A stretch of 64,000 nt of DNA from Escherichia coli. Lineage in GTDB: Bacteria > Pseudomonadota > Gammaproteobacteria > Enterobacterales > Enterobacteriaceae. The translations under genes were made by a program, and so were the position numbers. The stretch lies in NCBI RefSeq assembly GCF_030384885.1, contig NZ_CP128613.1; one strand, given 5' to 3'. Below, piece by piece: positions 4,449-57,371 of this stretch. The notes below the pieces were generated by a model, which was given only the letters and a program-made list of their open reading frames with translations, did no database searches and was not told where the DNA came from. Every line of letters starts with the position of its first letter. The first letter of the stretch is position 1.

Positions 4449-5495
4449 ATGCCAGTTTTGCAGTGGGGAATGTTATGTGTGCTTTCACTTCTCCTTTCTA
4501 TTGGCTTCCTCGCGGTACATCTTCCGGCGGCACTATTACTTGGGCCAATGATCGCCGGAATCATCTTTAGTATGCGCGGAATTACTCTGCAACTTCCCCG
4601 ATCCGCTTTTCTCGCCGCCCAAGCCATTCTTGGCTGCATGATTGCGCAAAACCTCACTGGTTCGATTCTCACCACGCTAGCCGTTAACTGGCCGATTGTG
4701 CTAGCCATTTTACTCGTGACGTTACTTTCCAGCGCCATCGTGGGTTGGTTATTGGTGCGCTATAGCTCACTGCCTGGAAATACCGGTGCCTGGGGTTCTT
4801 CTCCTGGCGGCGCGGCGGCAATGGTCGCTATGGCGCAAGATTACGGCGCAGATATTCGCCTGGTGGCATTTATGCAATATCTGCGAGTGCTGTTCGTCGC
4901 GGGGGCCGCTGTTCTGGTCACCCGCATGATGCTGGGCGATAACGCTGAAGCGGTTAACCAGCAGATCGTCTGGTTCCCGCCAGTGAGCATTAATCTCCTG
5001 CTTACGATTTTGCTCGCGGTCGTTGCCGGTACGGCGGGATGCTTGCTACGTCTTCCTTCCGGCACGATGCTCATCCCGATGCTGGCGGGCGCAGTGCTCC
5101 AGTCTGGTCAGCTCATCACCATCGAACTACCAGAATGGCTGCTGGCGATGGCGTATATGGCAATTGGCTGGCGGATTGGTCTTGGTTTCGATAAGCAAAT
5201 CTTACTGCGGGCATTGCGCCCGCTGCCACAAATCTTGCTGTCGATTTTTGCTCTGCTGGCTATTTGTGCAGGTATGGCGTGGGGACTGACCCGGTTTATG
5301 CATATTGATTTTATGACTGCCTACCTCGCCACCAGTCCCGGCGGGCTTGATACCGTGGCGGTCATCGCCGCAGGGAGCAATGCCGATATGGCGCTTATTA
5401 TGGCGATGCAAACCCTACGCCTGTTCAGTATTTTGCTGACGGGGCCAGCCATTGCGCGGTTTATTTCAACCTATGCGCCGAAGCGGTCGGCCTAG
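4449..5495 (+). CDS. abrB: AbrB-family inner-membrane protein (putative regulator/transporter)
   Basis: ORF 4371..5495, polytopic hydrophobic protein; start chosen at MPVLQWGML (348 aa), alternative in-frame ATG at 4434. Confidence 0.75.
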
Positions 5496-6283
5496 TGCTG
5501 GCAGCCTGGACACCAGTAAAACGGGCGCGAGGACAACGTGGTTTTCTCAATGATGCTGCCACAACGTTCGCACGGTTCGCCATCACGATGAAAAACCTTA
5601 AAGCGAAACAGCGCCCCATGATGTTTATTCTCATCCACCTGCCCCCGCGTAGCGTAAGAAAGTCGAGGAATCTCCAGTAACGCGTGTGCGAGTGCATCCA
5701 GTTGCGCCGCATTGAGATCTTTCGCTTTATGATTGCCGGTTAACCCCACCTGCCAGAGGATCTCCACCCGCAAATAATTGCCAAGCCCAGCCAGAAACGC
5801 CTGATCGAGTAGTAATCCAGCAAACTGACGGTTACGAAAGCGCGGCGACAATAACCGTTCTTTCGCCACCTCCGGCGTCAGTTTCGGATCCAGCACATCG
5901 GGGCCAACGCGTTGTAAAAACGGATGCGTGGTCAGTTGTTCCGGGGTCAACATCTCAATATCCGAGGCGCTATAAAGCAGAATGGTTTTGTCAGCCGTTT
6001 GCAGTTTTACCCGCAATACTCGCGTGGTCTGCGGCTCTTCGCCGGTATCAACCACGCGCCAGACGCCGTAAAGCTGATTATGGCTGTAGAGCGTTAACCC
6101 GTTGGAAAAATGAGTTAACAACGCCTTACCTCGCGTTTCCACATGGGTAACGTGTTGACCGATAAGTTGTGATTGATAAGGTTTTAACTGCGGGAAGGCA
6201 AACCAGACATCAGTTAGAGGTTTGCCTTTGATCGCCGCCTCCAGGTTATCCGCTGCGCGGCGGATTTCCGGGCCTTCAGGCAT
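5492..6283 (-). CDS. nei: Endonuclease VIII (DNA glycosylase/AP lyase)
   Basis: ORF 5492..6511 contains [14 protein letters not shown]... (Fpg/Nei N-terminal PEGPE motif) and C-terminal zinc finger [25 protein letters not shown]; true start at ATG 6283 (263 aa). Confidence 0.9.
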
Positions 6284-6317
6284 GGTGATATCCTTTTTTT
6301 GTTCTTTTTTTGCGGGA

Positions 6318-7052
6318 TTATGCTGCGACAACAATCCCCTTTTTGGTAAATGTAGAGCGTAGTCGGCGGGCGAACGCCAGTGCGTGCTCGCCGTCGCCAT
6401 GCAGACAGACAGTCTGCACCGTGACCGTCGCCCATTCGCCGGTGATACTTTTGACTCTGCCGTGTTGCACCATCTCCAGCGTCTGCGCCAGCGCCTGTTC
6501 TTCGTTTTCAATCAACGCGCCAGGCTGACTTCGCGGTACCAGTGAGCCGTCAGCCTGATATCCGCGATCGGCAAATACTTCCTCGCGCGTTGTCAGGCCA
6601 TATTGCTTGCCTGCACGAATCAGCTCGCTTCCCGCCAGCCCGACGAGAATCAATGCCGGATCGCAAGCGTAAACTGCTCTGGCAATGGCGTCTGCCAGTT
6701 GTGCGTCTTTCGCCGCCTGGTTGTATAACATGCCGTGCGGTTTGACATGACGCATCACGCCGCCTTGCGCGCGAGCAATAGCGGCCAGCGCACCAATTTG
6801 ATACAGCGTTTGGGCGTAAACGGTTTCCGGCGGCAATTGCATGGCGCTACGGCCAAAATGTTCCCTGTCCGGAAAGCTCGGGTGAGCGCCAATGGCGACA
6901 CCATTTTGTATGGCATCACGCACGCAAGCCTGCATGGTTTGTGCATCGCCTGCATGAAATCCACAGGCAATATTGGCTGAGGAAACCAGCGTTAATAGCT
7001 CTGCGTCGCTGACACAGCCTTCGCCCAGATCGGCGTTCAGGTCAATTTTCAT
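6318..7052 (-). CDS. pxpA: 5-oxoprolinase subunit A (LamB/YcsF family)
   Basis: 244-aa ORF, LamB/YcsF-family sequence ([12 protein letters not shown]...), overlaps upstream pxpC stop; conserved ybgJKL cluster. Confidence 0.85.
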
Positions 7053-7974
7053 TGTGCAGCCGCCACGCTAATTGTTCGAAATAACGTTGCTGATCTTGCC
7101 GTGCTTTCAGTGCCTCTTCCAGTGAACACTGGACAAAATGAATCGGCTGACCGAGCGGAATTTGCGCCAGATGGTACATATCAGCCTCAATGATACAGGC
7201 AATACGCGGATAACCACCGGTGGTCTGTGCGTCGTTCATCAATACAATCGGCTGCCCGTTATGCGGCACCTGCACCACGCCCGGCAACAAACCATGAGAT
7301 AACAGTTCGCGATCGGTGGTGCGTTTTAAGATTTGCCCCTGTAGGCGATAGCCCATCCGGTTACTTTGCGGGCTAAGCTGCCAGGGCGAACGCCAGAATG
7401 CATCCTGCGAGGCGCGATCGAACTCATGATATTCCGGCCCCGGCAAGGCGCGAATGCGGTTGCCCCACAGCAGCTGTTTAACGCCCTGCGCTTCCATAAA
7501 ATCACGCTTCGATTTACCCATCGGGAGTCGGTCACCATCCTTCAGTAAACGGCCTTCCAGCCCACCAATCCCCACTTTGAGATCGGTACTGCATGACCCC
7601 ATTACCGGCGGAACATCAATACCACCCGCGACCGCCAGATAACTGCGCATCCCGTGCTGCGGGCGTTTAAGCGTTAAACGCTGGCCTGCTTTCATCGGCA
7701 ATCGCCAGCCAGTCCAGACGGCATTATCATCCAGCCGCGCTTCGCAACCTGCCCCCGTCAGGGCAAACCAACCATCAGTTTCGAACTCTACCGTTAACTG
7801 ACCGAGCGTTATCTCCAGCGCGGGGGCATTGGCGTCATTACCCACCAGCAGGTTAGCAATGCGTAACGCAGGCATATCCAGTGCGCCGCAGTGGCTGATA
7901 CCCGACTGGCGAAAACCGTGACGACCGCCATCCTGCACAGTAGTATACATGCCCGCACGAATAATCTTCAGCAT
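7042..7974 (-). CDS. pxpC: 5-oxoprolinase subunit C (allophanate hydrolase subunit 2-like)
   Basis: 310-aa ORF, overlaps pxpB and pxpA; conserved operon context. Confidence 0.85.
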
Positions 7975-13412: not shown

Positions 13413-13748
13413 TCAGTAACTGCAAAGGAGAAAAATAGTCACTCCGATGAGATTACTCAATACCAGCAATAGCTCCCCATCATATAAATAGCCCACCATA
13501 AGATTAATCTCTATCATCTCAATTGCTTTTTGTACAGCAAGCGCCGGTAAGATATTCTGACGAAGCATTTTGGCAATATCATTTTCATCCAGTTCATCGG
13601 GTGTTTTATCTAATAAAGAATTATACCAGTTTATTAAACCACTTTTGAAAGCGAACGAATCATATTGCAGGTGATAAATCTGTTTTAGGGTTTCTTTATT
13701 TTTCAATTTATAGTGCCTTTGTTTGCTATAATTTTTCTGAAATAACAT
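13413..13748 (-). CDS. Hypothetical small protein with hydrophobic C-terminus (island ORF 5)
   Basis: 111-aa ORF in AT-rich island; start overlaps stop of upstream ORF (TGATG), indicating translational coupling; no family recognised. Confidence 0.45.
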   Translation of the reverse strand: MLFQKNYSKQRHYKLKNKETLKQIYHLQYDSFAFKSGLINWYNSLLDKTPDELDENDIAKMLRQNILPALAVQKAIEMIEINLMVGYLYDGELLLVLSNLIGVTIFLLCSY

Positions 13749-14215
13749 CAGCGAGTTTGCTCAGGTGCAGGGATGACCGAAATTGTCATGTATTTTTTCA
13801 GTCTGGCTTCTCGTTTCACACCTTTCGGATCTGAACCAAAAGGAAGCGTCAAGCATGGTGAGTCAACGGTTTGGATTGTCCAGAGAGAATCACCAATGAA
13901 TCTGAAATTGATGCTATCCGCTGTAACGGATAATCCCTCAAAACTTCCCGTCGCATACTCATTACCCAAACGTACGGTCTCTTTAACTCCATCGTTAACA
14001 TCGATAAGGACAATTGTCAGTGATTCCTCAAAAATAACGTCATCCGTCAGAAAAAGGATATAACGCTGGTCATTAACCTGAATTGCCGCTTCCAGTATTT
14101 GCCCTGGTACAATAATACCTGTGTTATTGCCATTAAGCACAACGTCAGACTGAGCCTGAGATAAATCAGTCGCTTTGTGAACCTTGACCAACGATATCGA
14201 ATTAACCTGTTGCAT
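13748..14215 (-). CDS. Hypothetical protein (island ORF 4)
   Basis: ORF track gives 13748..14308 from a GTG; I prefer ATG at 14215 (MQQVNSISLV..., 155 aa) because the upstream part is better explained by a separate out-of-frame glycine-zipper ORF ending 2 nt before this ATG. Confidence 0.45.
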   Translation of the reverse strand: MQQVNSISLVKVHKATDLSQAQSDVVLNGNNTGIIVPGQILEAAIQVNDQRYILFLTDDVIFEESLTIVLIDVNDGVKETVRLGNEYATGSFEGLSVTADSINFRFIGDSLWTIQTVDSPCLTLPFGSDPKGVKREARLKKYMTISVIPAPEQTR

Positions 14216-14217
14216 AA

Positions 14218-14358
14218 TCAATTCCACAAGCGCCCCATTTCCCATGCGGCAAGTGCACCGCCGACAAAGCCGCCAATAAGTACGCAAACAGGTGCTCCTG
14301 GACCACACATCAATCCGGTCAACGCACCGCCTGCGACAGCACCGGCAATAATATTCAT
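14218..14358 (-). CDS. 46-aa double glycine-zipper transmembrane micropeptide (island ORF 3)
   Basis: My own translation of the minus strand: MNIIAGAVAGGALTGLMCGPGAPVCVLIGGFVGGALAAWEMGRLWN, stop TGA 2 nt before the next start; two GxxxG-type glycine zippers; not in ORF track (below length cutoff). Confidence 0.4.
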   Translation of the reverse strand: MNIIAGAVAGGALTGLMCGPGAPVCVLIGGFVGGALAAWEMGRLWN

Positions 14359-14541
14359 CCGGGTACGACTGCCAGTGGTTTTAACAGATTTACGCTCACC
14401 GTTACGTATCCTGCCACCACTCAGGTTGCAGACGCGGCAGTCACAGCCTTGACGGTGTTGAAACTAAAGTTCAGGTGATAGTCTGATGTTCATAGTTTGA
14501 GCATTATCCCCTGACAGAATCAAATCAAGCAGTGTCAATGA

Positions 14542-14799
14542 TCACGTGTATATATCATTTAAAGCATTATCAAGCCAATCTTCCATGTTTTTAATTTTAG
14601 CCCGCGCATATAAATCATTCATAACATCCTCATAACTCTGTCCATCATTGACCATACAATTAGCTGTATGAGGCAGAACATGTATAAAATCAGACAATAT
14701 AAAACAAGCCTTTGAATTTCCAGAGTTAGCTGCAATTCTGATATCAATCAATCCTCTGGCAATCAATTTAAGAATAACATCTTGCATTTTAATTTCCAT
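14542..14799 (-). CDS. Hypothetical small cytoplasmic protein, immunity-protein-like (island ORF 2)
   Basis: 85-aa ORF in AT-rich island, co-oriented with neighbours; no family recognised. Confidence 0.45.
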   Translation of the reverse strand: MEIKMQDVILKLIARGLIDIRIAANSGNSKACFILSDFIHVLPHTANCMVNDGQSYEDVMNDLYARAKIKNMEDWLDNALNDIYT

Positions 14800-14881
14800 A
14801 TCATCCAGTTAAATTTCAGTAGTAAATCGTCTATCAAAAAAAGATGAAATTAACATTCATAAATTTATTACAATATGAAAA

Positions 14882-15235
14882 TCAAAAATATACATCATCA
14901 GCTTCTACCGAAAACTCCATGGCTCCTAAGGCACCTAAATCAATACTAAATATAGTATCACTTTCCTTAGCACTCCCAACATAGATAAAATAGCCTAAAT
15001 CTCCGTCTTGACCTATCAAAAAATAGTCAGGTTCCACTTGTTGAATATCATATGTTTCATTTCTTTCAATAAGATCAGAATAGTTATATAAATATAATGT
15101 TTCGTGCTTCTTATTAGTTATTTCATAGGTCTCACTATCTTTAATTTCTTCTATCAAAAAACGTTTATACACTGGAGGAAACTTGATTGACATGTCAAAT
15201 TCAATTTTATTTATATATTCTATAATTTTATTCAT
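14882..15235 (-). CDS. SUKH/SMI1-KNR4-like immunity-type protein (island ORF 1)
   Basis: 117-aa ORF; FPPVYKRFLIEE ... YFLIGQDGDLGYFIYVG resembles the SMI1/KNR4 (SUKH-1) pattern (aromatic/Pro N-terminal motif plus GxDGxGxxxY) seen in polymorphic-toxin immunity proteins; assignment by eye only. Confidence 0.5.
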   Translation of the reverse strand: MNKIIEYINKIEFDMSIKFPPVYKRFLIEEIKDSETYEITNKKHETLYLYNYSDLIERNETYDIQQVEPDYFLIGQDGDLGYFIYVGSAKESDTIFSIDLGALGAMEFSVEADDVYF

Positions 15236-20453: not shown

Positions 20454-23130
20454 CGAACCCTTACGTCCCGACCCCGATCGTCTGCTGGAACAAACTGCCG
20501 CGCCGCATCGGGGGAAGCTGAAAGTATTTTTCGGTGCCTGTGCAGGCGTCGGGAAGACCTGGGCGATGCTGGCAGAAGCCCAGCGACTGCGGGCGCAAGG
20601 GCTGGATATTGTGGTTGGCGTGGTTGAAACTCACGGACGGAAAGATACCGCCGCAATGCTGGAAGGGCTGGCTGTTCTGCCGCTAAAACGCCAGGCGTAC
20701 CGTGGGCGGCACATCAGCGAGTTTGATCTCGATGCCGCCCTCGCCCGCCGTCCGGCGCTGATCTTAATGGACGAACTGGCGCACAGTAATGCGCCAGGCT
20801 CTCGTCATCCTAAACGCTGGCAGGACATTGAAGAGCTGCTGGAAGCGGGCATTGATGTTTTCACTACCGTCAACGTTCAGCATCTGGAAAGCCTGAACGA
20901 TGTGGTCAGCGGCGTCACCGGAATTCAGGTGCGGGAAACCGTGCCCGATCCCTTTTTTGATGCTGCCGACGACGTAGTGCTGGTGGACTTGCCCCCAGAC
21001 GATCTGCGTCAACGGCTGAAAGAAGGCAAAGTCTATATTGCCGGGCAGGCGGAGCGCGCCATTGAACATTTTTTCCGCAAAGGCAATCTGATCGCCCTGC
21101 GCGAACTGGCACTGCGCCGTACTGCCGATCGCGTAGATGAGCAAATGCGCGCCTGGCGGGGGCATCCTGGCGAAGAGAAAGTCTGGCACACGCGCGACGC
21201 GATTCTTTTATGTATTGGGCATAACACCGGCAGCGAAAAACTGGTCCGCGCGGCGGCACGGTTGGCATCGCGCCTTGGGAGCGTCTGGCACGCGGTGTAT
21301 GTTGAAACCCCTGCCCTGCATCGCTTACCGGAGAAAAAACGTCGGGCAATTCTCAGCGCCTTACGTCTGGCGCAGGAGCTGGGCGCGGAGACAGCAACAC
21401 TTTCTGATCCGGCGGAAGAAAAAGCCGTAGTGCATTATGCCCGTGAACATAATCTCGGCAAGATTATTCTCGGTCGCCCGGCCTCGCGCCGCTGGTGGCG
21501 TCGGGAAACGTTTGCTGACCGACTGGCGCGCATCGCCCCCGATCTCGATCAGGTGCTGGTCGCGCTTGATGAACCACCCGCCCGCCCGCTTAATAACGCG
21601 CCGGATAGCCGCTCTTTTAAAGACAAGTGGCGGGTACAGATTCAGGGGTGCGTGGTTGCCGCCGCGTTATGTGCCGTTATCACCTTAATTGCCATGCAGT
21701 GGCTGATGGCGTTTGATGCCGCCAACCTGGTGATGCTGTATCTGCTTGGCGTGGTGGTGGTGGCGCTATTTTATGGACGCTGGCCTTCGGTGCTTGCTAC
21801 CGTCATTAATGTGGTGAGTTTCGATCTCTTTTTTATCGCCCCACGCGGCACGCTCGCCGTCTCTGATGTGCAATATCTGCTGACCTTCGCGGTGATGTTA
21901 ACCGTCGGGCTGGTGATCGGGAACCTTACTGCTGGCGTGCGTTATCAGGCGCGGGTAGCCCGTTACCGCGAACAACGCACACGGCACTTATATGAAATGT
22001 CGAAAGCTCTGGCTGTGGGCCGCAGTCCGCAGGACATCGCCGCCACCAGCGAACAATTTATTGCTTCTACGTTTCATGCCCGCAGCCAGGTATTGTTACC
22101 CGATGACAACGGTAAATTGCAGCCGTTAACACATCCGCAAGGAATGACGCCGTGGGACGATGCCATCGCGCAGTGGAGTTTTGATAAAGGCCTGCCTGCG
22201 GGCGCGGGCACCGATACGTTACCCGGTGTGCCATACCAGATTTTGCCGTTAAAAAGCGGTGAGAAAACCTACGGGCTGGTGGTGGTGGAACCGGGGAATC
22301 TGCGCCAGTTGATGATCCCGGAACAGCAACGCCTGCTGGAGACGTTCACGCTGTTAGTTGCCAATGCCCTGGAACGCCTGGCGCTGACCGCCAGCGAAGA
22401 ACAGGCGCGGATGGCAAGCGAACGAGAACAGATCCGCAACGCCCTGCTGGCGGCGCTTTCGCATGATTTACGCACGCCGCTTACGGTGCTGTTCGGTCAG
22501 GCAGAAATCTTAACGCTCGATCTGGCAAGCGAAGGATCGCCTCACGCCCGCCAGGCCAGCGAGATTCGTCAGCATGTGCTGAACACGACCCGACTGGTGA
22601 ATAATCTACTGGATATGGCGCGAATTCAGTCCGGCGGCTTTAATTTGAAGAAAGAGTGGTTAACGCTGGAAGAAGTGGTCGGTAGCGCGCTACAAATGCT
22701 GGAACCGGGATTATCATCGCCCATCAACCTGTCTTTGCCAGAACCGCTGACCTTAATCCACGTTGATGGGCCACTCTTTGAACGGGTGCTGATTAATCTG
22801 CTGGAGAACGCGGTGAAATATGCGGGTGCGCAGGCCGAAATTGGTATCGATGCCCACGTTGAGGGCGAAAATCTACAACTGGATGTCTGGGATAACGGCC
22901 CCGGTCTTCCGCCAGGTCAGGAGCAGACGATATTCGATAAGTTTGCTCGTGGAAATAAAGAGTCGGCGGTGCCGGGCGTTGGGCTTGGGCTGGCAATTTG
23001 TCGGGCGATTGTGGATGTACACGACGGCACCATTACCGCCTTCAACCGACCGCAAGGTGGTGCCTGTTTTCGTGTTACACTTCCCCAGCAAACTGCCCCT
23101 GAACTTGAAGAATTTCATGAGGATATGTGA
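20446..23130 (+). CDS. kdpD: Sensor histidine kinase KdpD
   Basis: ORF 20413..23130; start at [16 protein letters not shown]; H-box [14 protein letters not shown], ATPase G-boxes; overlaps kdpC end. Confidence 0.95.
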
Positions 23131-23804
23131 CAAACGTTCTGATTGTTGAAGATGAACAGGCTATTCGTCGCTTTCTGCGCACGGCGCTGGAGGGCGATGG
23201 GATGCGCGTCTTTGAGGCCGAAACGCTGCAACGCGGCTTGCTGGAAGCGGCAACCCGTAAGCCCGATTTGATTATTCTCGATCTCGGCCTGCCAGACGGT
23301 GATGGGATTGAGTTTATCCGCGACCTGCGCCAGTGGAGCGCGGTGCCAGTAATTGTGCTTTCCGCCCGCAGCGAAGAGAGCGACAAAATCGCCGCGCTGG
23401 ATGCTGGAGCGGATGATTATCTGAGTAAGCCATTTGGTATTGGCGAATTACAGGCCCGTCTGCGCGTTGCTTTACGTCGCCACTCCGCCACCGCCGCTCC
23501 CGATCCGCTGGTGAAATTTTCTGATGTTACCGTCGATTTAGCCGCCCGCGTAATCCACCGCGGCGAGGAAGAGGTGCATCTCACCCCGATTGAATTCCGC
23601 CTGCTGGCGGTGCTGCTCAACAATGCCGGAAAAGTGCTCACCCAGCGCCAGCTTCTCAACCAGGTGTGGGGACCAAACGCGGTCGAACACAGCCACTATT
23701 TGCGTATATATATGGGGCATCTGCGACAAAAACTGGAGCAAGATCCCGCCCGCCCTCGCCATTTTATTACTGAAACCGGTATTGGGTATCGGTTTATGCC
23801 ATGA
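23127..23804 (+). CDS. kdpE: Response regulator KdpE (OmpR family)
   Basis: 225-aa ORF, GTG start overlapping kdpD stop (GTGA); receiver domain (LIVEDEQAIRRFL...DLGLPDGDG) and winged-helix output domain. Confidence 0.95.
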   Translation: MTNVLIVEDEQAIRRFLRTALEGDGMRVFEAETLQRGLLEAATRKPDLIILDLGLPDGDGIEFIRDLRQWSAVPVIVLSARSEESDKIAALDAGADDYLSKPFGIGELQARLRVALRRHSATAAPDPLVKFSDVTVDLAARVIHRGEEEVHLTPIEFRLLAVLLNNAGKVLTQRQLLNQVWGPNAVEHSHYLRIYMGHLRQKLEQDPARPRHFITETGIGYRFMP

Positions 23805-23849
23805 ATTATTATTCAATAAATACGCTTAACTAATTATTAATTTATTATT

Positions 23850-23883
23850 AAACCTGCCCCGAAAATTATTATTTGGCAGGTTT
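23850..23883. terminator. Putative hairpin downstream of kdpE
   Basis: aaacctgcc-N15-ggcaggttt in AT-rich context; long loop, so weak. Confidence 0.35.
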
Positions 23884-24078
23884 AATTTCTTAATGAAAAT
23901 ATAACCTACGAAATTGCAACATTTAAACAACAAAACAGCATCTAATATGGCGCTATTCATAATTAACGATTTATTATTTGGGGTGTGATCGTTTTTTGTT
24001 GATCTTCTTCACAGTTTATAGCCTTTTCATGGATAGAATAACTCTACCTTCAACTGACACAGCAAAAGGTAAAGGTAA

Positions 24079-24183
24079 ATGGAAAATAATAACCGCTTAA
24101 TGCCTCATATAAGGCGGACAACCCATATCATGAAGTTTGCCCATCGTAATAGTTTTGACTTTCATTTCTTTAATGCCCGTTAG
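24079..24183 (+). CDS. speFL: speF leader peptide (ornithine-sensing ribosome arrest peptide)
   Basis: 34-codon ORF translated by hand: MENNNRLMPHIRRTTHIMKFAHRNSFDFHFFNAR*, about 310 bp upstream of speF; matches the described SpeFL leader; not in ORF track. Confidence 0.8.
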   Translation: MENNNRLMPHIRRTTHIMKFAHRNSFDFHFFNAR

Positions 24184-24493
24184 TCTTCTGACTAAAGGGC
24201 ACCCCAGCGTACAGGTCTCCCTGACTTTAAGCATTACAGGTTAATACCTGTATCCCTCGGTGCTCATATACTGCTAACCCTTTTAAACTCTAAATAATTC
24301 AAGTCGCAGCACTAGCAACTTGAAGTATGACGAGTATAGCCAGTTACCGGGCTGGTCTGGGTTATTGCATCTGCAAAAAGCAAACTACTGATTTATTTAT
24401 CAGCGGTGGAGTTTTGCTTTTTTTCCGGCGTGATCGATTTCTCCTTTGAGAAATTGAGGACCTGCTATTACCTGAAATAAAGAGATGAACAAA

Positions 24494-26692
24494 ATGTCAG
24501 AATTAAAAATTGCCGTTAGTCGTTCTTGCCCGGATTGTTTTTCCACTCATCGTGCATGCGTGAATATTGACGAAAGTAATTATATTGACGTTGCCGCCAT
24601 TATTTTATCAGTCAATGATGTTGAACGTGGAAAACTCGATGAAATAGACGCTACTGGCTATGGCATTCCTGTTTTTATTGCAACGGAAAATGAAGAACGT
24701 GTACCAGCAGAATATCTGCCACGTATTACTGGTGTCTTCGAGCATTGCGAATCACGGAAAGAATTTTATGGACGTCAGTTAGAAACCGCTGCCAGCCATT
24801 ATGAAACGCAGCTGCGCCCGCCCTTCTTCCGCGCACTGGTCGATTATGTCAATCAGGGCAATAGCGCTTTTGACTGCCCGGGTCATCAGGGGGGTGAGTT
24901 TTTCCGTCGCCATCCGGCAGGCAATCAGTTCGTGGAATATTTTGGCGAAATGCTCTTCCGCTCCGACTTGTGTAATGCCGACGTAGCAATGGGCGATCTA
25001 CTGATTCATGAAGGTGCGCCATGCATTGCACAGCAACATGCGGCTAAAGTGTTTAATGCCGATAAAACGTACTTTATTTTAAACGGCACCTCCTCTTCCA
25101 ACAAAGTGGTTTTAAACGCCCTGCTAACACCGGGTGATCTGGTGCTGTTTGACCGCAATAACCATAAGTCTAACCACCACGGGGCCTTGCTACAGGCTGG
25201 TGCAACACCGGTTTATCTGGAAACAGCACGTAACCCGTATGGTTTTATCGGTGGGATTGATGCGCACTGCTTCGAAGAAAGTTATCTGCGTGAACTGATT
25301 AGAGAAGTTGCACCGCAACGGGCAAAAGAGGCGCGTCCGTTCCGCCTCGCTGTGATTCAGTTAGGCACCTACGACGGTACTATTTATAACGCCCGCCAGG
25401 TGGTGGATAAAATCGGTCATCTGTGTGACTACATCCTGTTTGACTCAGCATGGGTCGGCTATGAACAGTTTATTCCGATGATGGCGGACTGTTCGCCGCT
25501 GCTACTGGAGCTTAATGAGAACGATCCGGGTATTCTGGTTACGCAATCTGTACATAAGCAGCAGGCTGGTTTTTCTCAGACTTCACAAATTCATAAAAAA
25601 GACAGCCATATCAAAGGGCAACAGCGTTATGTACCGCACAAACGCATGAACAACGCCTTTATGATGCACGCCTCCACCAGCCCGTTCTATCCGCTGTTTG
25701 CCGCACTGGATATCAACGCCAAAATGCATGAAGGTGTCAGCGGTCGTAATATGTGGATGGATTGTGTGGTTAACGGTATTAATGCCCGCAAATTGATCCT
25801 CGATAACTGTCAGCACATTCGTCCGTTCGTTCCTGAACTGGTGGATGGTAAACCCTGGCAATCGTATGAAACAGCGCAAATTGCGGTTGATCTGCGCTTC
25901 TTTAAATTTGTACCCGGTGAGCACTGGCATTCTTTTGAAGGTTACGCAGAGAACCAATACTTTGTCGATCCGTGCAAACTGTTGCTGACAACTCCTGGCA
26001 TTGATGCACGTAACGGCGAATATGAAGCATTCGGTGTACCCGCGACGATTCTTGCTAACTTCCTGCGCGAAAATGGCGTAGTGCCGGAAAAATGCGATCT
26101 TAACTCCATCCTCTTCCTGCTGACTCCGGCAGAAGATATGGCCAAACTGCAGCAACTTGTTGCCCTGCTGGTACGCTTCGAAAAACTACTGGAAGCTGAT
26201 GCGCCTCTGGCGGAAGTATTGCCTTCCATCTACAAACAGCATGAAGAGCGCTACGCCGGTTATACCCTGCGTCAGTTGTGCCAGGAAATGCATGATTTGT
26301 ATGCCCGTCACAACGTGAAACAACTGCAAAAAGAGATGTTCCGTAAGGAGCACTTCCCACGCGTCAGCATGAATCCACAAGAAGCCAACTACGCCTATTT
26401 ACGCGGTGAAGTGGAGCTGGTTCGTCTGCCGGATGCAGAAGGCCGTATCGCAGCCGAAGGTGCGCTTCCTTATCCTCCGGGTGTGCTGTGTGTTGTTCCG
26501 GGTGAAATCTGGGGTGGTGCTGTTCTGCGTTACTTCAGCGCTCTGGAAGAAGGGATCAACCTGCTACCAGGTTTTGCACCGGAGCTGCAGGGTGTCTATA
26601 TCGAAGAACATGATGGTCGTAAGCAAGTTTGGTGCTATGTCATCAAGCCTCGTGATGCGCAAAGCACCCTGTTGAAAGGGGAAAAATTATGA
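24494..26692 (+). CDS. speF: Inducible ornithine decarboxylase
   Basis: ORF 24485..26692; start placed at MSELKIAVSRS (732 aa) with SD agaga ~9 nt upstream; PLP-dependent Orn/Lys/Arg decarboxylase family; stop overlaps potE start. Confidence 0.9.
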   Translation: MSELKIAVSRSCPDCFSTHRACVNIDESNYIDVAAIILSVNDVERGKLDEIDATGYGIPVFIATENEERVPAEYLPRITGVFEHCESRKEFYGRQLETAASHYETQLRPPFFRALVDYVNQGNSAFDCPGHQGGEFFRRHPAGNQFVEYFGEMLFRSDLCNADVAMGDLLIHEGAPCIAQQHAAKVFNADKTYFILNGTSSSNKVVLNALLTPGDLVLFDRNNHKSNHHGALLQAGATPVYLETARNPYGFIGGIDAHCFEESYLRELIREVAPQRAKEARPFRLAVIQLGTYDGTIYNARQVVDKIGHLCDYILFDSAWVGYEQFIPMMADCSPLLLELNENDPGILVTQSVHKQQAGFSQTSQIHKKDSHIKGQQRYVPHKRMNNAFMMHASTSPFYPLFAALDINAKMHEGVSGRNMWMDCVVNGINARKLILDNCQHIRPFVPELVDGKPWQSYETAQIAVDLRFFKFVPGEHWHSFEGYAENQYFVDPCKLLLTTPGIDARNGEYEAFGVPATILANFLRENGVVPEKCDLNSILFLLTPAEDMAKLQQLVALLVRFEKLLEADAPLAEVLPSIYKQHEERYAGYTLRQLCQEMHDLYARHNVKQLQKEMFRKEHFPRVSMNPQEANYAYLRGEVELVRLPDAEGRIAAEGALPYPPGVLCVVPGEIWGGAVLRYFSALEEGINLLPGFAPELQGVYIEEHDGRKQVWCYVIKPRDAQSTLLKGEKL

Positions 26693-28008: not shown

Positions 28009-28023
28009 AAAAGCGAAATAAAA

Positions 28024-28052
28024 AAGGGCGATTGAATGATCGCCCTTTCTGT
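28024..28052 (+). terminator. Rho-independent terminator of speF-potE
   Basis: gggcgattgaatgatcgccc hairpin followed by T-run, directly after potE stop. Confidence 0.7.
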
Positions 28053-28090: not shown

Positions 28091-28232
28091 AGGTGTAGGG
28101 TCCAAACGCGGTCGAACACAGCAACTATTTGCGTAATTATATGAGGCATTTGCGACAAAAACTGGAACAGGATCTCGTCCGCCCCGCCATTTCATTACTG
28201 AAACCGGTATTGGGTATCGGTTTATGCTTTGA
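28091..28232 (+). pseudogene. Degenerate duplicate of the kdpE 3' end (kdpE-homolog remnant)
   Basis: ~142 bp roughly 90% identical by eye to 23663..23804 (the last ~47 codons of kdpE), same orientation, frame broken; likely equivalent to the K-12 kdpE-like pseudogene remnant (name uncertain). Confidence 0.75.
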
Positions 28233-28355
28233 AAAAAGTGGCAATGTATGGATAAAGTCATTTTTTATTCAAATATAAGGAACTTAATATTTAAAAAATG
28301 TCCCATACAATGCCTCATCATAAATGACACCGTAGCACACAAGGAGCAAGTAGCG

Positions 28356-29006
28356 ATGCGTGAAGTGAGTCAGTTAGTAAATACGGAAGATTCAGCCTGG
28401 CCAATAATCCAGAATTGGTTAAAAGAAGCCACAAACCATGCCGAACTCTTACCGGTTAATAAAGATTTAGCCGAAACCGCACTTTATCAATTACAGGTTA
28501 CAACAAAATCACCGATGGGTGCGCTTGTCTATGGCTCCGGAGGTCTGCTGATTGATAACGGTTGGTTACGCATAGCAGGCTCTGGTCACCCCCGGTTACC
28601 ACGAGATCCAGCAAGTTGGACACAACGCCCTGAATTCGCAAGCGTGCGGGCTTTACCCATCGCCGATGATGTCGCAGGGGGAATTTTTGCTCTTAATGGT
28701 GGCGATCTTGGGGAAGATACTGGCTGCGTTTATTATTTTGCGCCAGATACGCTGAATTGGGAAAGTCTGGAGGTTGGATATTCTGAGTTTCTTCAGTGGG
28801 CATTATCCGGTGATTTAGATACCTTCTATGAAAATGTACGCTGGCCGCAATGGCAAGAAGACGTAATAAAATTATCGGCAACGGAAGCCTTCACTTTCTA
28901 CCCTTTCTTATGGGTACAAAGTGAAGAAGCAAGAACAAGAAAAGTTATTTCGCTTACTGAACTCTGGGAAATGCAGTATCAAATGAAAGAAACAATCACG
29001 CAATAA
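28356..29006 (+). CDS. ybfG: DUF2625-family protein
   Basis: ORF 28248..29006; start at ATG 28356 preceded by strong SD aaggag (spacing ~9); appears intact here. Confidence 0.7.
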   Translation: MREVSQLVNTEDSAWPIIQNWLKEATNHAELLPVNKDLAETALYQLQVTTKSPMGALVYGSGGLLIDNGWLRIAGSGHPRLPRDPASWTQRPEFASVRALPIADDVAGGIFALNGGDLGEDTGCVYYFAPDTLNWESLEVGYSEFLQWALSGDLDTFYENVRWPQWQEDVIKLSATEAFTFYPFLWVQSEEARTRKVISLTELWEMQYQMKETITQ

Positions 29007-29046
29007 GACATGTTCAGGTCCGGGTTTCATTCCCGGACTCGCTATT

Positions 29047-29541
29047 TTAATGTGTGTTTATCGCTTTCAATTCTTGCTGGCAATTTTCTGACTGACAGCG
29101 TCGCAACTCAATAATCCCGACATGCATCATCGAGCCAAAAAATCCGCTTTCGCTGACATAATCCTCATTAACTATCGGTCGAGTGCCGGGCTTACCCTGG
29201 CAAATCCTCATAAAAAATGAGGTGTAGCATTGCCATTCAGGATTTAAACCGGTCTTTTCTTGTGCTGACATATCATGAAGATAAGTAAGTTCTTTTTCGT
29301 TCCCGCCTGACAACTGCCAGCGGCGGGTATTATCAGGTAAGTTATCGCCACGGCAATTTGTCTTACACCGGGAAGGCGCAATATTTACCGCAATGCTACC
29401 CGTTAATCCTCTGGTTTTATCTTTAGGGGTCAGTAACCAGTCACCAGCTAATGATGATTGTTCAGGTTGGGCGCATGCTGTCAGTAGTAGTGTGGCGGTA
29501 ATTAATGCCACTCTGACGACCAGACTCCTTTTGGTCTTCAT
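29047..29541 (-). CDS. ybfP: Lipoprotein
   Basis: ORF 29047..29592; start at MKTKRSLVV... with lipobox LLTAC (164 aa). Confidence 0.75.
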   Translation of the reverse strand: MKTKRSLVVRVALITATLLLTACAQPEQSSLAGDWLLTPKDKTRGLTGSIAVNIAPSRCKTNCRGDNLPDNTRRWQLSGGNEKELTYLHDMSAQEKTGLNPEWQCYTSFFMRICQGKPGTRPIVNEDYVSESGFFGSMMHVGIIELRRCQSENCQQELKAINTH

Positions 29542-29700: not shown

Positions 29701-29735
29701 AAAAAAGGGCGATCTTCTGACCGCCCTTTTTCTTA
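29701..29735. terminator. Bidirectional hairpin terminator downstream of pgm
   Basis: aaaaaagggcg...cgcccttttt: GC stem with A-run and T-run on either side. Confidence 0.65.
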
Positions 29736-48106: not shown

Positions 48107-48183
48107 GGCTACGTAGCTCAGTTGGTTAGAGCACATCACTCATAATGATGGGGTCACAGGTTCGAATCCCGTCGTAGCCACCA
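48107..48183 (+). tRNA. metT: tRNA-Met (elongator, anticodon CAT)
   Basis: ggctacgtagctcagttggttagagcacatcactCATaatgatggggtcacaggttcgaatcccgtcgtagccacca; cloverleaf with CCA end. Confidence 0.95.
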
Positions 48184-48191
48184 TCTTTTTT

Positions 48192-48276
48192 GCGGGAGTG
48201 GCGAAATTGGTAGACGCACCAGATTTAGGTTCTGGCGCCGCAAGGTGTGCGAGTTCAAGTCTCGCCTCCCGCACCA
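48192..48276 (+). tRNA. leuW: tRNA-Leu (long variable arm; anticodon read as TAG, assigned by eye)
   Basis: gcgggagtggcgaaattggtagacgcaccagatttaggttctggcgccgcaaggtgtgcgagttcaagtctcgcctcccgcacca (85 nt). Confidence 0.9.
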
Positions 48277-48299
48277 TTCACCAGAAAGCGTTGTACGGA

Positions 48300-48374
48300 T
48301 GGGGTATCGCCAAGCGGTAAGGCACCGGTTTTTGATACCGGCATTCCCTGGTTCGAATCCAGGTACCCCAGCCA
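48300..48374 (+). tRNA. glnU: tRNA-Gln (anticodon TTG)
   Basis: tggggtatcgccaagcggtaaggcaccggtttTTGataccggcattccctggttcgaatccaggtaccccagcca. Confidence 0.9.
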
Positions 48375-48407
48375 TCTTCTTCGAGTAAGCGGTTCACCGC
48401 CCGGTTA

Positions 48408-48482
48408 TTGGGGTATCGCCAAGCGGTAAGGCACCGGTTTTTGATACCGGCATTCCCTGGTTCGAATCCAGGTACCCCAGCC
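48408..48482 (+). tRNA. glnW: tRNA-Gln (anticodon TTG), second copy
   Basis: Identical 75-nt sequence to 48300..48374. Confidence 0.9.
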
Positions 48483-48497
48483 ATCGAAGAAACAATC

Positions 48498-48574
48498 TGG
48501 CTACGTAGCTCAGTTGGTTAGAGCACATCACTCATAATGATGGGGTCACAGGTTCGAATCCCGTCGTAGCCACC
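48498..48574 (+). tRNA. metU: tRNA-Met (elongator, anticodon CAT), second copy
   Basis: Identical to 48107..48183. Confidence 0.95.
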
Positions 48575-48623
48575 AAATTCTGAATGTGTCGAATGCGTTC
48601 GGCAAATTCACAAACCAATTTGT

Positions 48624-48698
48624 TGGGGTATCGCCAAGCGGTAAGGCACCGGATTCTGATTCCGGCATTCCGAGGTTCGAATCCTCGTACCCCAGCCA
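48624..48698 (+). tRNA. glnV: tRNA-Gln (anticodon CTG)
   Basis: tggggtatcgccaagcggtaaggcaccggattCTGattccggcattccgaggttcgaatcctcgtaccccagcca. Confidence 0.9.
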
Positions 48699-48735
48699 AT
48701 TTATTCAAGACGCTTACCTTGTAAGTGCACCCAGT

Positions 48736-48810
48736 TGGGGTATCGCCAAGCGGTAAGGCACCGGATTCTGATTCCGGCATTCCGAGGTTCGAATCCTCGT
48801 ACCCCAGCCA
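48736..48810 (+). tRNA. glnX: tRNA-Gln (anticodon CTG), second copy
   Basis: Identical 75-nt sequence to 48624..48698. Confidence 0.9.
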
Positions 48811-56293: not shown

Positions 56294-57202
56294 ATGCAAT
56301 TACGTAAACCTGCCACAGCAATCCTGGCCCTGGCGCTTTCCGCAGGACTGGCACAGGCAGATGACGCCGCCCCGGCAGCAGGCAGTACGCTGGACAAAAT
56401 CGCCAAAAACGGTGTGATTGTCGTCGGTCACCGTGAATCTTCAGTACCTTTCTCTTATTACGACAATCAGCAAAAAGTGGTGGGTTACTCGCAGGATTAC
56501 TCCAACGCCATTGTTGAAGCAGTGAAAAAGAAACTCAACAAACCGGACTTGCAGGTGAAACTGATTCCGATCACCTCACAAAACCGTATTCCGCTGCTGC
56601 AAAACGGCACTTTCGATTTTGAATGTGGTTCAACCACCAACAACGTCGAACGCCAAAAACAGGCGGCTTTCTCTGACACTATTTTCGTGGTCGGTACGCG
56701 CCTGCTGACCAAAAAGGGCGGCGATATCAAAGATTTTGCCGACCTGAAAGGCAAAGCCGTAGTCGTTACTTCCGGCACTACCTCTGAAGTTTTGCTCAAC
56801 AAATTGAATGAAGAGCAAAAAATGAATATGCGCATCATCAGCGCCAAAGATCACGGTGACTCTTTCCGCACCCTGGAAAGCGGTCGTGCCGTTGCCTTTA
56901 TGATGGATGACGCCCTGCTGGCCGGTGAGCGAGCGAAAGCGAAGAAACCAGACAACTGGGAAATCGTCGGCAAGCCGCAGTCTCAGGAAGCCTACGGTTG
57001 CATGTTGCGTAAAGACGATCCGCAGTTCAAAAAGCTGATGGATGACACTATCGCTCAGGTGCAGACCTCCGGTGAAGCGGAAAAATGGTTTGATAAGTGG
57101 TTCAAAAATCCAATTCCGCCGAAAAACCTGAACATGAATTTCGAACTGTCGGACGAAATGAAAGCACTGTTCAAAGAACCGAATGACAAGGCACTGAACT
57201 AA
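56294..57202 (+). CDS. gltI: Glutamate/aspartate ABC transporter periplasmic binding protein
   Basis: ORF 56219..57202; start at MQLRKPATAILALALSAGLAQA (signal peptide), 302 aa. Confidence 0.9.
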   Translation: MQLRKPATAILALALSAGLAQADDAAPAAGSTLDKIAKNGVIVVGHRESSVPFSYYDNQQKVVGYSQDYSNAIVEAVKKKLNKPDLQVKLIPITSQNRIPLLQNGTFDFECGSTTNNVERQKQAAFSDTIFVVGTRLLTKKGGDIKDFADLKGKAVVVTSGTTSEVLLNKLNEEQKMNMRIISAKDHGDSFRTLESGRAVAFMMDDALLAGERAKAKKPDNWEIVGKPQSQEAYGCMLRKDDPQFKKLMDDTIAQVQTSGEAEKWFDKWFKNPIPPKNLNMNFELSDEMKALFKEPNDKALN

Positions 57203-57209
57203 TTACAAG

Positions 57210-57359
57210 AACCAGGGGCGGAAATTCTAGCCCTCTCGATTGTTACGTAGCACGGACAGACTATACGCCTGATGGTCGTTCCCCATCGGGCCTGAAAACC
57301 GCAATACGCTGGGTAACAATCTTCGAGGGTAGCAGTTAACGCTGCTACCCTCTTTTTTC
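57210..57359 (+). ncRNA. sroC: Candidate SroC-type sRNA from the gltI-gltJ intergenic region, ending at an intrinsic terminator
   Basis: 169-bp intergenic spacer inside the operon containing hairpin gagggtagcagttaacgctgctaccctc (57325..57352) plus T-run; SroC is described at this position. 5' end not determinable from sequence. Confidence 0.5.
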
Positions 57360-57371
57360 TGGAGTAGATTT

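Follow-up and report, generated by a model that had tools for sequence, protein, structure and literature searches.

What could the product of ybfG, a gene that is dead in Escherichia coli K-12 and intact in other strains, do for the cells that keep it? The question is raised by a 64,000-nucleotide stretch of an E. coli genome (NCBI RefSeq assembly GCF_030384885.1, contig NZ_CP128613.1; hereafter the window), in which ybfG is an uninterrupted gene for a protein of the DUF2625 family. No functional assignment or mention of DUF2625 was found in the searchable literature. Here, the predicted fold of YbfG and the neighbours of its relatives suggest that the protein neutralises DNA-cutting toxins injected by rivals. 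That is, YbfG may be an orphan SUKH-type immunity protein against a deoxyribonuclease (DNase) toxin, an inferred function to which we give about an even chance of being right. If validated, YbfG would be a new member of the SUKH immunity proteins, a known kind of system, and a domain of unknown function would gain a testable function as a by-product.

The reading frame and its K-12 counterpart

An initial annotation, made from the letters alone, described an intact 216-codon frame of DUF2625 type behind a strong Shine–Dalgarno (SD) sequence. The frame indeed reads without interruption from its ATG at 28356 to the TAA at 29004–29006, and the SD motif AAGGAG, 8 nt 5′ of the ATG, is unchanged in MG1655 and five other ybfG alleles (coordinates of all features are collected in table 1). 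A Pfam search gave a full-length match to DUF2625 (PF10946), with residues 5–202 of the window protein aligned to profile positions 2–206/207 at 291.4 bits (cutoff 27; E 3.1e-87). Chance similarity of an open frame would not come close to such a score.

The annotation also stated, with admitted uncertainty, that the K-12 counterpart is disrupted or split, and this was accurate. In MG1655, ybfG (b0691) is an annotated pseudogene, also of 651 bp, beside the pseudogene ybfI (b4636). Its translation stops at codon 70 because a TGG→TAG change has turned W70 into an amber codon, and the K-12 gene was formerly split as ybfH and ybfG, b0691–b0690 (PMC2731931). Since alignment shows the MG1655 frame to be interrupted, the claimed difference between the two strains stands. 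The two copies otherwise share their locus, the flanking ybfI and ybfP, the SD sequence and the −35 box of a candidate sigma-E promoter, and are 96.6% identical in nucleotide sequence. Compared with the common intact E. coli allele, K-12 differs only by W70* and G109V, the latter placing Val at a Gly that is invariant across the DUF2625 family.

The contrast between an intact ybfG in the window and a pseudogene in K-12 is correctly described, but it is already known and ordinary. Annotations of the intact gene exist for well over 1000 genomes, and the pseudogene of K-12 is a textbook annotation, so the finding adds little in itself. For example, the window shows 100% identity to E. coli strain 2013C-4282 (NZ_CP027579.1), in which RefSeq already lists a ‘DUF2625 domain-containing protein’ (WP_001209504.1).

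Family and predicted fold

At least 610 DUF2625 relatives are detectable. They occur in Enterobacterales, Burkholderiales, Xanthomonas, Pseudomonas, Neisseria and many Bacteroidota, and also in a few Clostridium, Myxococcota, Planctomycetota and Acidobacteriota genomes. Among other species representatives, no homologue exceeds 54% identity, barring one contig of a ‘Collinsella sp.’ metagenome-assembled genome (MAG). This 1899-bp contig (JAIJJM010000630.1) encodes a protein 96% identical to YbfG and is almost certainly E. coli contamination in an actinobacterial MAG.

A sequence-profile search of the PDB returned nothing meaningful (the best hit, a cell-adhesion protein, had E 0.043), and the informative comparison was that of folds. 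The AlphaFold2 model of YbfG (pLDDT 92.6, pTM 0.90) adopts the α+β fold of SUKH proteins and resembles Tdi1 or Atu4351 in structure over nearly its whole length. In a fold comparison with SUKH/SMI1-KNR4 proteins, the model scored 8.8 with Lin2918, 7.8 with YobK, 7.7 with BF1740, 6.4 with PSPTO_5518, 6.4 with FBXO3, 6.1 with Knr4, 5.2 with RhsPI and 4.6 with Syd. Foldseek agrees with this comparison. At the sequence level, support for SUKH membership is weak. Four of 48 DUF2625 members match SMI1_KNR4, with YbfG at 16.1 bits falling below the gathering threshold of 25.4 (E 0.018), and one of the 48 matches SUKH_6 (E 0.074). Scans of YbfG and 47 homologues at E ≤ 10 revealed no other immunity/DUF family besides these two.

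The comparison with characterized proteins is informative about both likeness and distance. Tdi1 and Tdi2 are validated immunity proteins that inhibit Ntox15 DNase effectors by insertion into the nuclease core, a fold-splitting mechanism, and orphan Tdi copies cross-protect (PMC10470768); the pairing of Ntox15 with Imm-SUKH was listed by Zhang et al. (PMC3482391). The Bacteroidales Tdi1/Tdi2 and the Agrobacterium tumefaciens Atu4351/Tdi1 are immunity proteins of type VI secretion systems (T6SS) that act on Ntox15 DNase effectors, whereas YbfG has only 11–14% structure-based identity to them and falls outside the Tdi sequence family in the scans at E ≤ 10. SUKH-1/SMI1-KNR4 proteins, such as Bacillus subtilis YobK and RhsPI, are about 130–160 aa long, whereas YbfG has 216 aa and belongs to a separate Pfam family. 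If YbfG acts as proposed, its mode of action would also resemble that of Nin/ComJ, a protein that inhibits its partner DNase of NucA/ComI type. Imm-ComJ is listed with Tox-ComI-like nucleases and described as mostly β (PMC3482391), unlike the SUKH fold, and no sequence or structural relationship between Nin/ComJ and YbfG was seen here.

Neighbourhoods of DUF2625 relatives

Most DUF2625 genes, including that of E. coli, stand alone in variable regions among unrelated neighbours. Across 79 species-representative loci, a search for a conserved neighbour found none; the commonest were DinB_2 (6), SDR (5) and DUF1801 (5), and SMI1_KNR4 occurred twice. Ten large upstream neighbours were scanned singly and proved to be housekeeping proteins, save a Clostridium Rhs protein.

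At three loci (two Rhs loci and one oral-metagenome array), a DUF2625 relative lies directly 3′ of a NucA/NucB-type DNase toxin. The Clostridium homopropionicum locus (L056) encodes an RHS-repeat protein, 1605 aa long or more, with the canonical core motif ...NNPVNLYDPSG followed by a C-terminal tip (the last ~125 residues, 4590–4967). The tip is 50–65% identical to NucA/NucB DNases, and the DUF2625 gene starts 22–30 bp 3′ of the Rhs gene. At a locus of a gut Clostridium MAG (L081), Rhs C-terminal modules are arrayed with their immunity genes, one of which codes for a clear SUKH_5/6 protein, and a 28-aa remnant of the same tip lies immediately 5′ of the DUF2625 gene. In human oral-metagenome contigs (L108–L111), a 139-aa NucA/NucB cassette (L108 3501–3917) is followed, after a gap of 19 bp, by a gene for a 191-aa DUF2625 protein (31% identical to YbfG, E 2e-24). 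The array there is ordered as a series of pairs: a large gene and Imm26; Tox-ART-HYD1 and DUF6881; NucA/NucB and DUF2625; GH-E and Imm33; and then PT-TG. A polymorphic-toxin immunity gene is expected to follow a toxin-domain gene immediately and in the same orientation. The relatives at L056, L081 and L108–L111 have this arrangement, with the NucA/NucB tip 19–30 bp upstream, and E. coli ybfG does not.

Downstream of one Flavobacterium copy lie DUF2314-ankyrin and SUFU genes, and one Citrobacter copy has DUF596 two genes upstream; all three are listed as immunity families (PMC3482391). DUF2625 genes occur in poly-immunity or orphan toxin-cassette arrays at L081, L108–L111, L012 and L017, but such arrays were not seen at the majority of the 79 representative loci. 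With 44% identity to YbfG, the toxin-linked proteins from Clostridium are as similar to it as stand-alone members from Bacteroidota are, and they keep the family motifs. No Ntox15 domain was found beside a DUF2625 gene at any locus examined.

Two further immunity-related regions were seen. In C. homopropionicum, the Rhs–DUF2625 pair is followed at 6214–7560 by an orphan Rhs C-terminal module, whose toxin tip differs and is unassigned, then by a 125-aa membrane-like open reading frame (ORF) and an Imm53 gene, a typical series of displaced toxin/immunity cassettes. In the window itself, the ybgA–ybfA interval, which is the position of rhsC in K-12, holds small genes only and lacks an Rhs core (13413–15235, minus strand). 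These comprise a CdiI_3 contact-dependent inhibition (CDI) immunity gene (13413–13706; Pfam E 7e-18), a 116-aa ORF with a weak SMI1_KNR4/SUKH match (14882–15235; E 1.4e-4), two hypothetical ORFs and an IS630 fragment. This interval, about 13 kb from ybfG, looks like the orphan-immunity remnant of an Rhs/CDI locus.

Distribution and selection in E. coli

Strains differ in whether they have the gene: 1852 of 5426 complete E. coli genomes (about a third) carry ybfG, and in 1777 of the carriers at least 80% of it is covered. The K-12 amber allele, counted with a 49-mer able to match only when the amber base is present, occurs in 364 genomes. These are nearly all laboratory K-12 derivatives, and include MG1655, W3110, DH10B, BW25113, C600 and MC4100. 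Sampled non-K-12 copies were intact in five out of five cases (three of them WP_001208814.1), and about 70% of carrier genomes retain a full-length copy. The intact state is the normal state of ybfG and is not special. Inactivation has occurred independently through the amber codon, through insertion of IS1 and, in a copy of which only 60% matches the query, through a frameshift.

The allele in the window is one of a minority class, matched by 129 genomes at 99% identity or more, and differs from the common intact allele at 20 codons. Between the two classes there are 9 non-synonymous and 11 synonymous changes, with non-synonymous (dN) and synonymous (dS) divergences of 0.018 and 0.081. The resulting dN/dS of 0.22 and the departure of the 9:11 ratio from neutrality (binomial P 0.0014) show that purifying selection has acted on ybfG. 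Constraint is stronger on the neighbouring genes potE, pgm, kdpE and speF (dN/dS 0.007–0.056), and ybfP has a value similar to that of ybfG (0.17). Moreover, all invariant columns of a 48-sequence DUF2625 alignment are retained in the window protein, for example S52, D67, R72, D104-D105, G108-G109, N114, P130, W163, W166 and P183; K-12 has lost G109 as well as W70. Overall, ybfG behaves as a functional yet dispensable accessory gene.

Probable regulation by sigma-E

A sigma-E promoter was taken to consist of GGAACTT, about 16 nt and TCAAA. The candidate upstream of ybfG has a perfect match in the −35 box and a weak match in the −10 element. Its GGAACTT is unique within 27.9–29.1 kb of the window and conserved in all alleles examined. 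The −10 region carries a T→C change in the window compared with the K-12/common allele, so that the element reads TCCAT in K-12 and TCCCA, one position upstream, here. Base changes at 28302 and 28312 relative to the K-12/common allele lie within and just after the presumed −10, and may alter promoter strength.

In K-12, the ybfG promoter is among 28 sigma-E promoters mapped by rapid amplification of 5′ complementary DNA ends (PMC1312014), and sigma-E induced ybfH–ybfG 3.9-fold and 25.2-fold (PMC2731931). We infer that the GGAACTT motif of the window is the −35 box of the promoter mapped in K-12. Transcription of ybfG probably starts from this promoter, and YbfG would therefore be made under envelope stress. 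For Shigella, a published list of genes under PhoP control includes ybfG, at a ratio of 0.43.

Proposed function and alternatives

Putting fold, neighbourhoods, selection, accessory-gene behaviour and regulation together, a competitor's Rhs, T6SS or CDI system would deliver a DNase toxin domain into the cell, and YbfG would bind and inactivate the incoming domain, most likely one of NucA/NucB type. The gene would be switched on via its candidate sigma-E promoter during envelope stress. YbfG is probably cytoplasmic; no hydrophobic signal-like stretch is visible by inspection at its N-terminus. A more ambitious version holds that DUF2625, including YbfG, is an undescribed SUKH-type immunity family specific for NucA/NucB DNase domains and sigma-E-induced in E. 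coli, where the gene would be a damage-induced rather than constitutive immunity gene that K-12 has lost, and this we consider rather doubtful.

If YbfG neutralises effectors of NucA/NucB type, several consequences follow. The sigma-E link would tie envelope-stress sensing to protection from injected toxins. K-12, a common prey in competition assays and the background in which a ybfG knock-out serves as a neutral control, would be a natural null. In addition, DUF2625 would take its place among the catalogued immunity families.

A number of observations weigh against an immunity function. The 121 immediate neighbours at the 79 representative loci fall into 117 Pfam families, and only 2 of the 79 loci are toxin-linked. 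No toxin gene stands beside E. coli ybfG, whose upstream neighbours are potE and the kdpE remnant, and the NucA/NucB loci P0141 and P0169 have no DUF2625 gene nearby. The fold evidence comes from a predicted model, and the closest structural relatives of YbfG neutralise Ntox15 toxins (with an HxxD motif), not those of NucA/NucB type that are linked to DUF2625 relatives. The putative −10 element is altered by a base change in the window allele. Finally, E. coli YbfG shares 43–55% identity and invariant polar residues with Bacteroidota or Clostridium members, a degree of conservation unusually high for an immunity protein and one that also fits a conserved cellular partner.

Such a partner is the basis of the strongest alternative, namely that YbfG is a SUKH-fold adaptor which binds a conserved cellular protein in the sigma-E envelope-stress response and is unrelated to toxins. 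Its counterparts would be Syd, a SecY-binding protein, or yeast Smi1/Knr4, and the few toxin-linked relatives would be a side branch that took on the role of immunity proteins. Besides the strong cross-phylum conservation, the sigma-E control reported in K-12 and the many copies that stand alone among genes such as DinB_2, SDR and DUF1801 speak for an adaptor. Yet ybfG is dispensable, as two thirds of E. coli genomes lack it and the K-12 copy is dead, and its sporadic distribution, with no close orthologue in sister species, is unlike that of a core stress-response component. Syd, by comparison, is a core gene, unlike the accessory ybfG. Moreover, Syd is much more distant from YbfG than the dedicated immunity proteins are, and the toxin-linked Clostridium members resemble YbfG no less than stand-alone ones do. 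On balance, we see the adaptor as an unlikely explanation, albeit one to be taken seriously.

An orphan immunity protein also has to be set against the possibility that the intact frame has no current function and is a horizontally acquired passenger not yet mutated in this lineage. Several independent inactivations (including the amber codon with G109V in K-12), the absence of ybfG from most strains and its use as a neutral knock-out control in K-12 would all agree with a passenger. The dN/dS lies significantly below neutrality, however, the invariant family residues, the SD sequence and the sigma-E −35 box are conserved, and full-length copies prevail among carriers, which makes a passenger improbable.

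Lastly, it is barely credible that the frame was mis-delimited and the true product is the 252-aa frame from ATG 28248 in the mechanical ORF list: that ATG gives the longest ORF by the mechanical rule, but the MRE... methionine is the start in 47 of 47 aligned homologues as well as in RefSeq, which makes 28356 the real one, and, with the Pfam match beginning at residue 5 of the 216-aa form, the AAGGAG placed for 28356 and an extension that would overlap the sigma-E promoter motif, the longer frame was rejected as a gene.

A variable junction around ybfG

The initial annotation placed ybfG next to a kdpE remnant and expected an intact copy to help reconstruct the ancestral organization of this variable junction. 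The remnant is real, and the gene order reads kdpD–kdpE–speFL–speF–potE–[kdpE 3′ remnant]–ybfG> <ybfP–pgm–seqA. Homology to kdpE runs from about 28096 and stops exactly at the stop codon (28233). The remnant is about 90% identical to resident kdpE alleles and matches every allele tested at 88–92%, and therefore points to no particular one as its source. RefSeq describes it as ‘frameshifted; missing N-terminus’; a 1-bp deletion relative to K-12 means that the ybfI remnant is frameshifted as well as truncated in the window.

Table 1. Features of the ybfG locus in the window, with the basis for each.
Feature	Coordinates	Strand	Basis
potE-side terminator hairpin AAAAAAGGGCGAT...ATCGCCCTTT, left repeat copy	28020..28050	.	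terminator scan; exact 12-mer; junction alignment
kdpE-like 3′ remnant (ybfI in K-12)	28096..28233	+	BLAST matches to kdpE; alignment; RefSeq note
candidate sigma-E promoter	28279..28306	+	−35 GGAACTT 28279–28285; −10-like TCCCA ~15 nt downstream
Shine–Dalgarno AAGGAG	28342..28347	+	8-nt spacer to ATG; read directly from sequence
ybfG, intact CDS	28356..29006	+	216 codons + stop; DUF2625; predicted SUKH/Tdi-like fold
G+C-rich terminator-like hairpin between convergent ybfG and ybfP	29017..29039	.	terminator scan, 8 pairs, 6 G-C
ybfP, lipoprotein gene of unknown function	29047..29541	−	annotation; convergent with ybfG; within variable block
pgm-side terminator hairpin, right copy of same repeat	29701..29731	.	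repeat match; junction alignment

The 1.7-kb ybfI–ybfG–ybfP block is a presence/absence polymorphism, and three junction configurations occur in the species. In the first (T1), potE and pgm converge 56 bp apart without ybfI, ybfG and ybfP, for example in O157:H7 and APEC O1. In the second (T2), speFL, speF, potE and ybfG are missing and the order is kdpE–REP–<ybfP–<pgm, so that ybfP occurs without ybfG in 247 genomes, such as 23CRST011; an example locus (L106, NZ_AP045770.1, 2212–3496) has a repetitive extragenic palindromic (REP)/bacterial interspersed mosaic element (BIME) after kdpE. The third (T3), potE–ybfI–ybfG–ybfP, is the type of the window and K-12 and is found in 1852 genomes. Since T2 lacks speFL–speF–potE, the inducible ornithine decarboxylase/antiporter operon is also a presence/absence polymorphism in E. 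coli. No Pfam match was obtained for ybfP.

The block is flanked at both ends by the hairpin repeat AAAAAAGGGCGAT...CGCCCTTT, and the exact 12-mer of the potE/pgm bidirectional terminator occurs twice in the window against 0 expected. Block-free genomes have a single hybrid hairpin copy between potE and pgm in the junction alignment, consistent with either loss of the block between the two repeats or its insertion at the hairpin; T1 could accordingly be a pre-insertion state or a deletion product. As the kdpE homology ends at the stop codon, ybfG once stood directly downstream of a kdpE-type gene, as ybfP does in T2, and T3 appears to be a recombinant of kdpE–speF–potE and kdpE–ybfG–ybfP–pgm arrangements. 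The expected use of the intact copy is therefore borne out in part: three configurations of the block were found, although they are compatible with more than one order of events. The three-state junction (potE><pgm; kdpE–ybfP; potE–ybfI–ybfG–ybfP) is a handy marker of local recombination history.

Synonymous divergence is uneven in this part of the window. Relative to K-12, dS reaches 0.27 in kdpE and 0.34 in speF (23127–26692), and is lower nearby, at 0.15 in potE and 0.11 in pgm; for ybfG it is 0.08 relative to the common allele. This pattern suggests mosaic ancestry or recombination across the region.

Other features of the window

An Rfam scan found no RNA family within or beside the ybfG locus. 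Elsewhere in the window, at gathering thresholds, it identified a seven-tRNA cluster and the small RNA sroC (48107–48807 and 57198–57360), ordinary E. coli features unrelated to ybfG.
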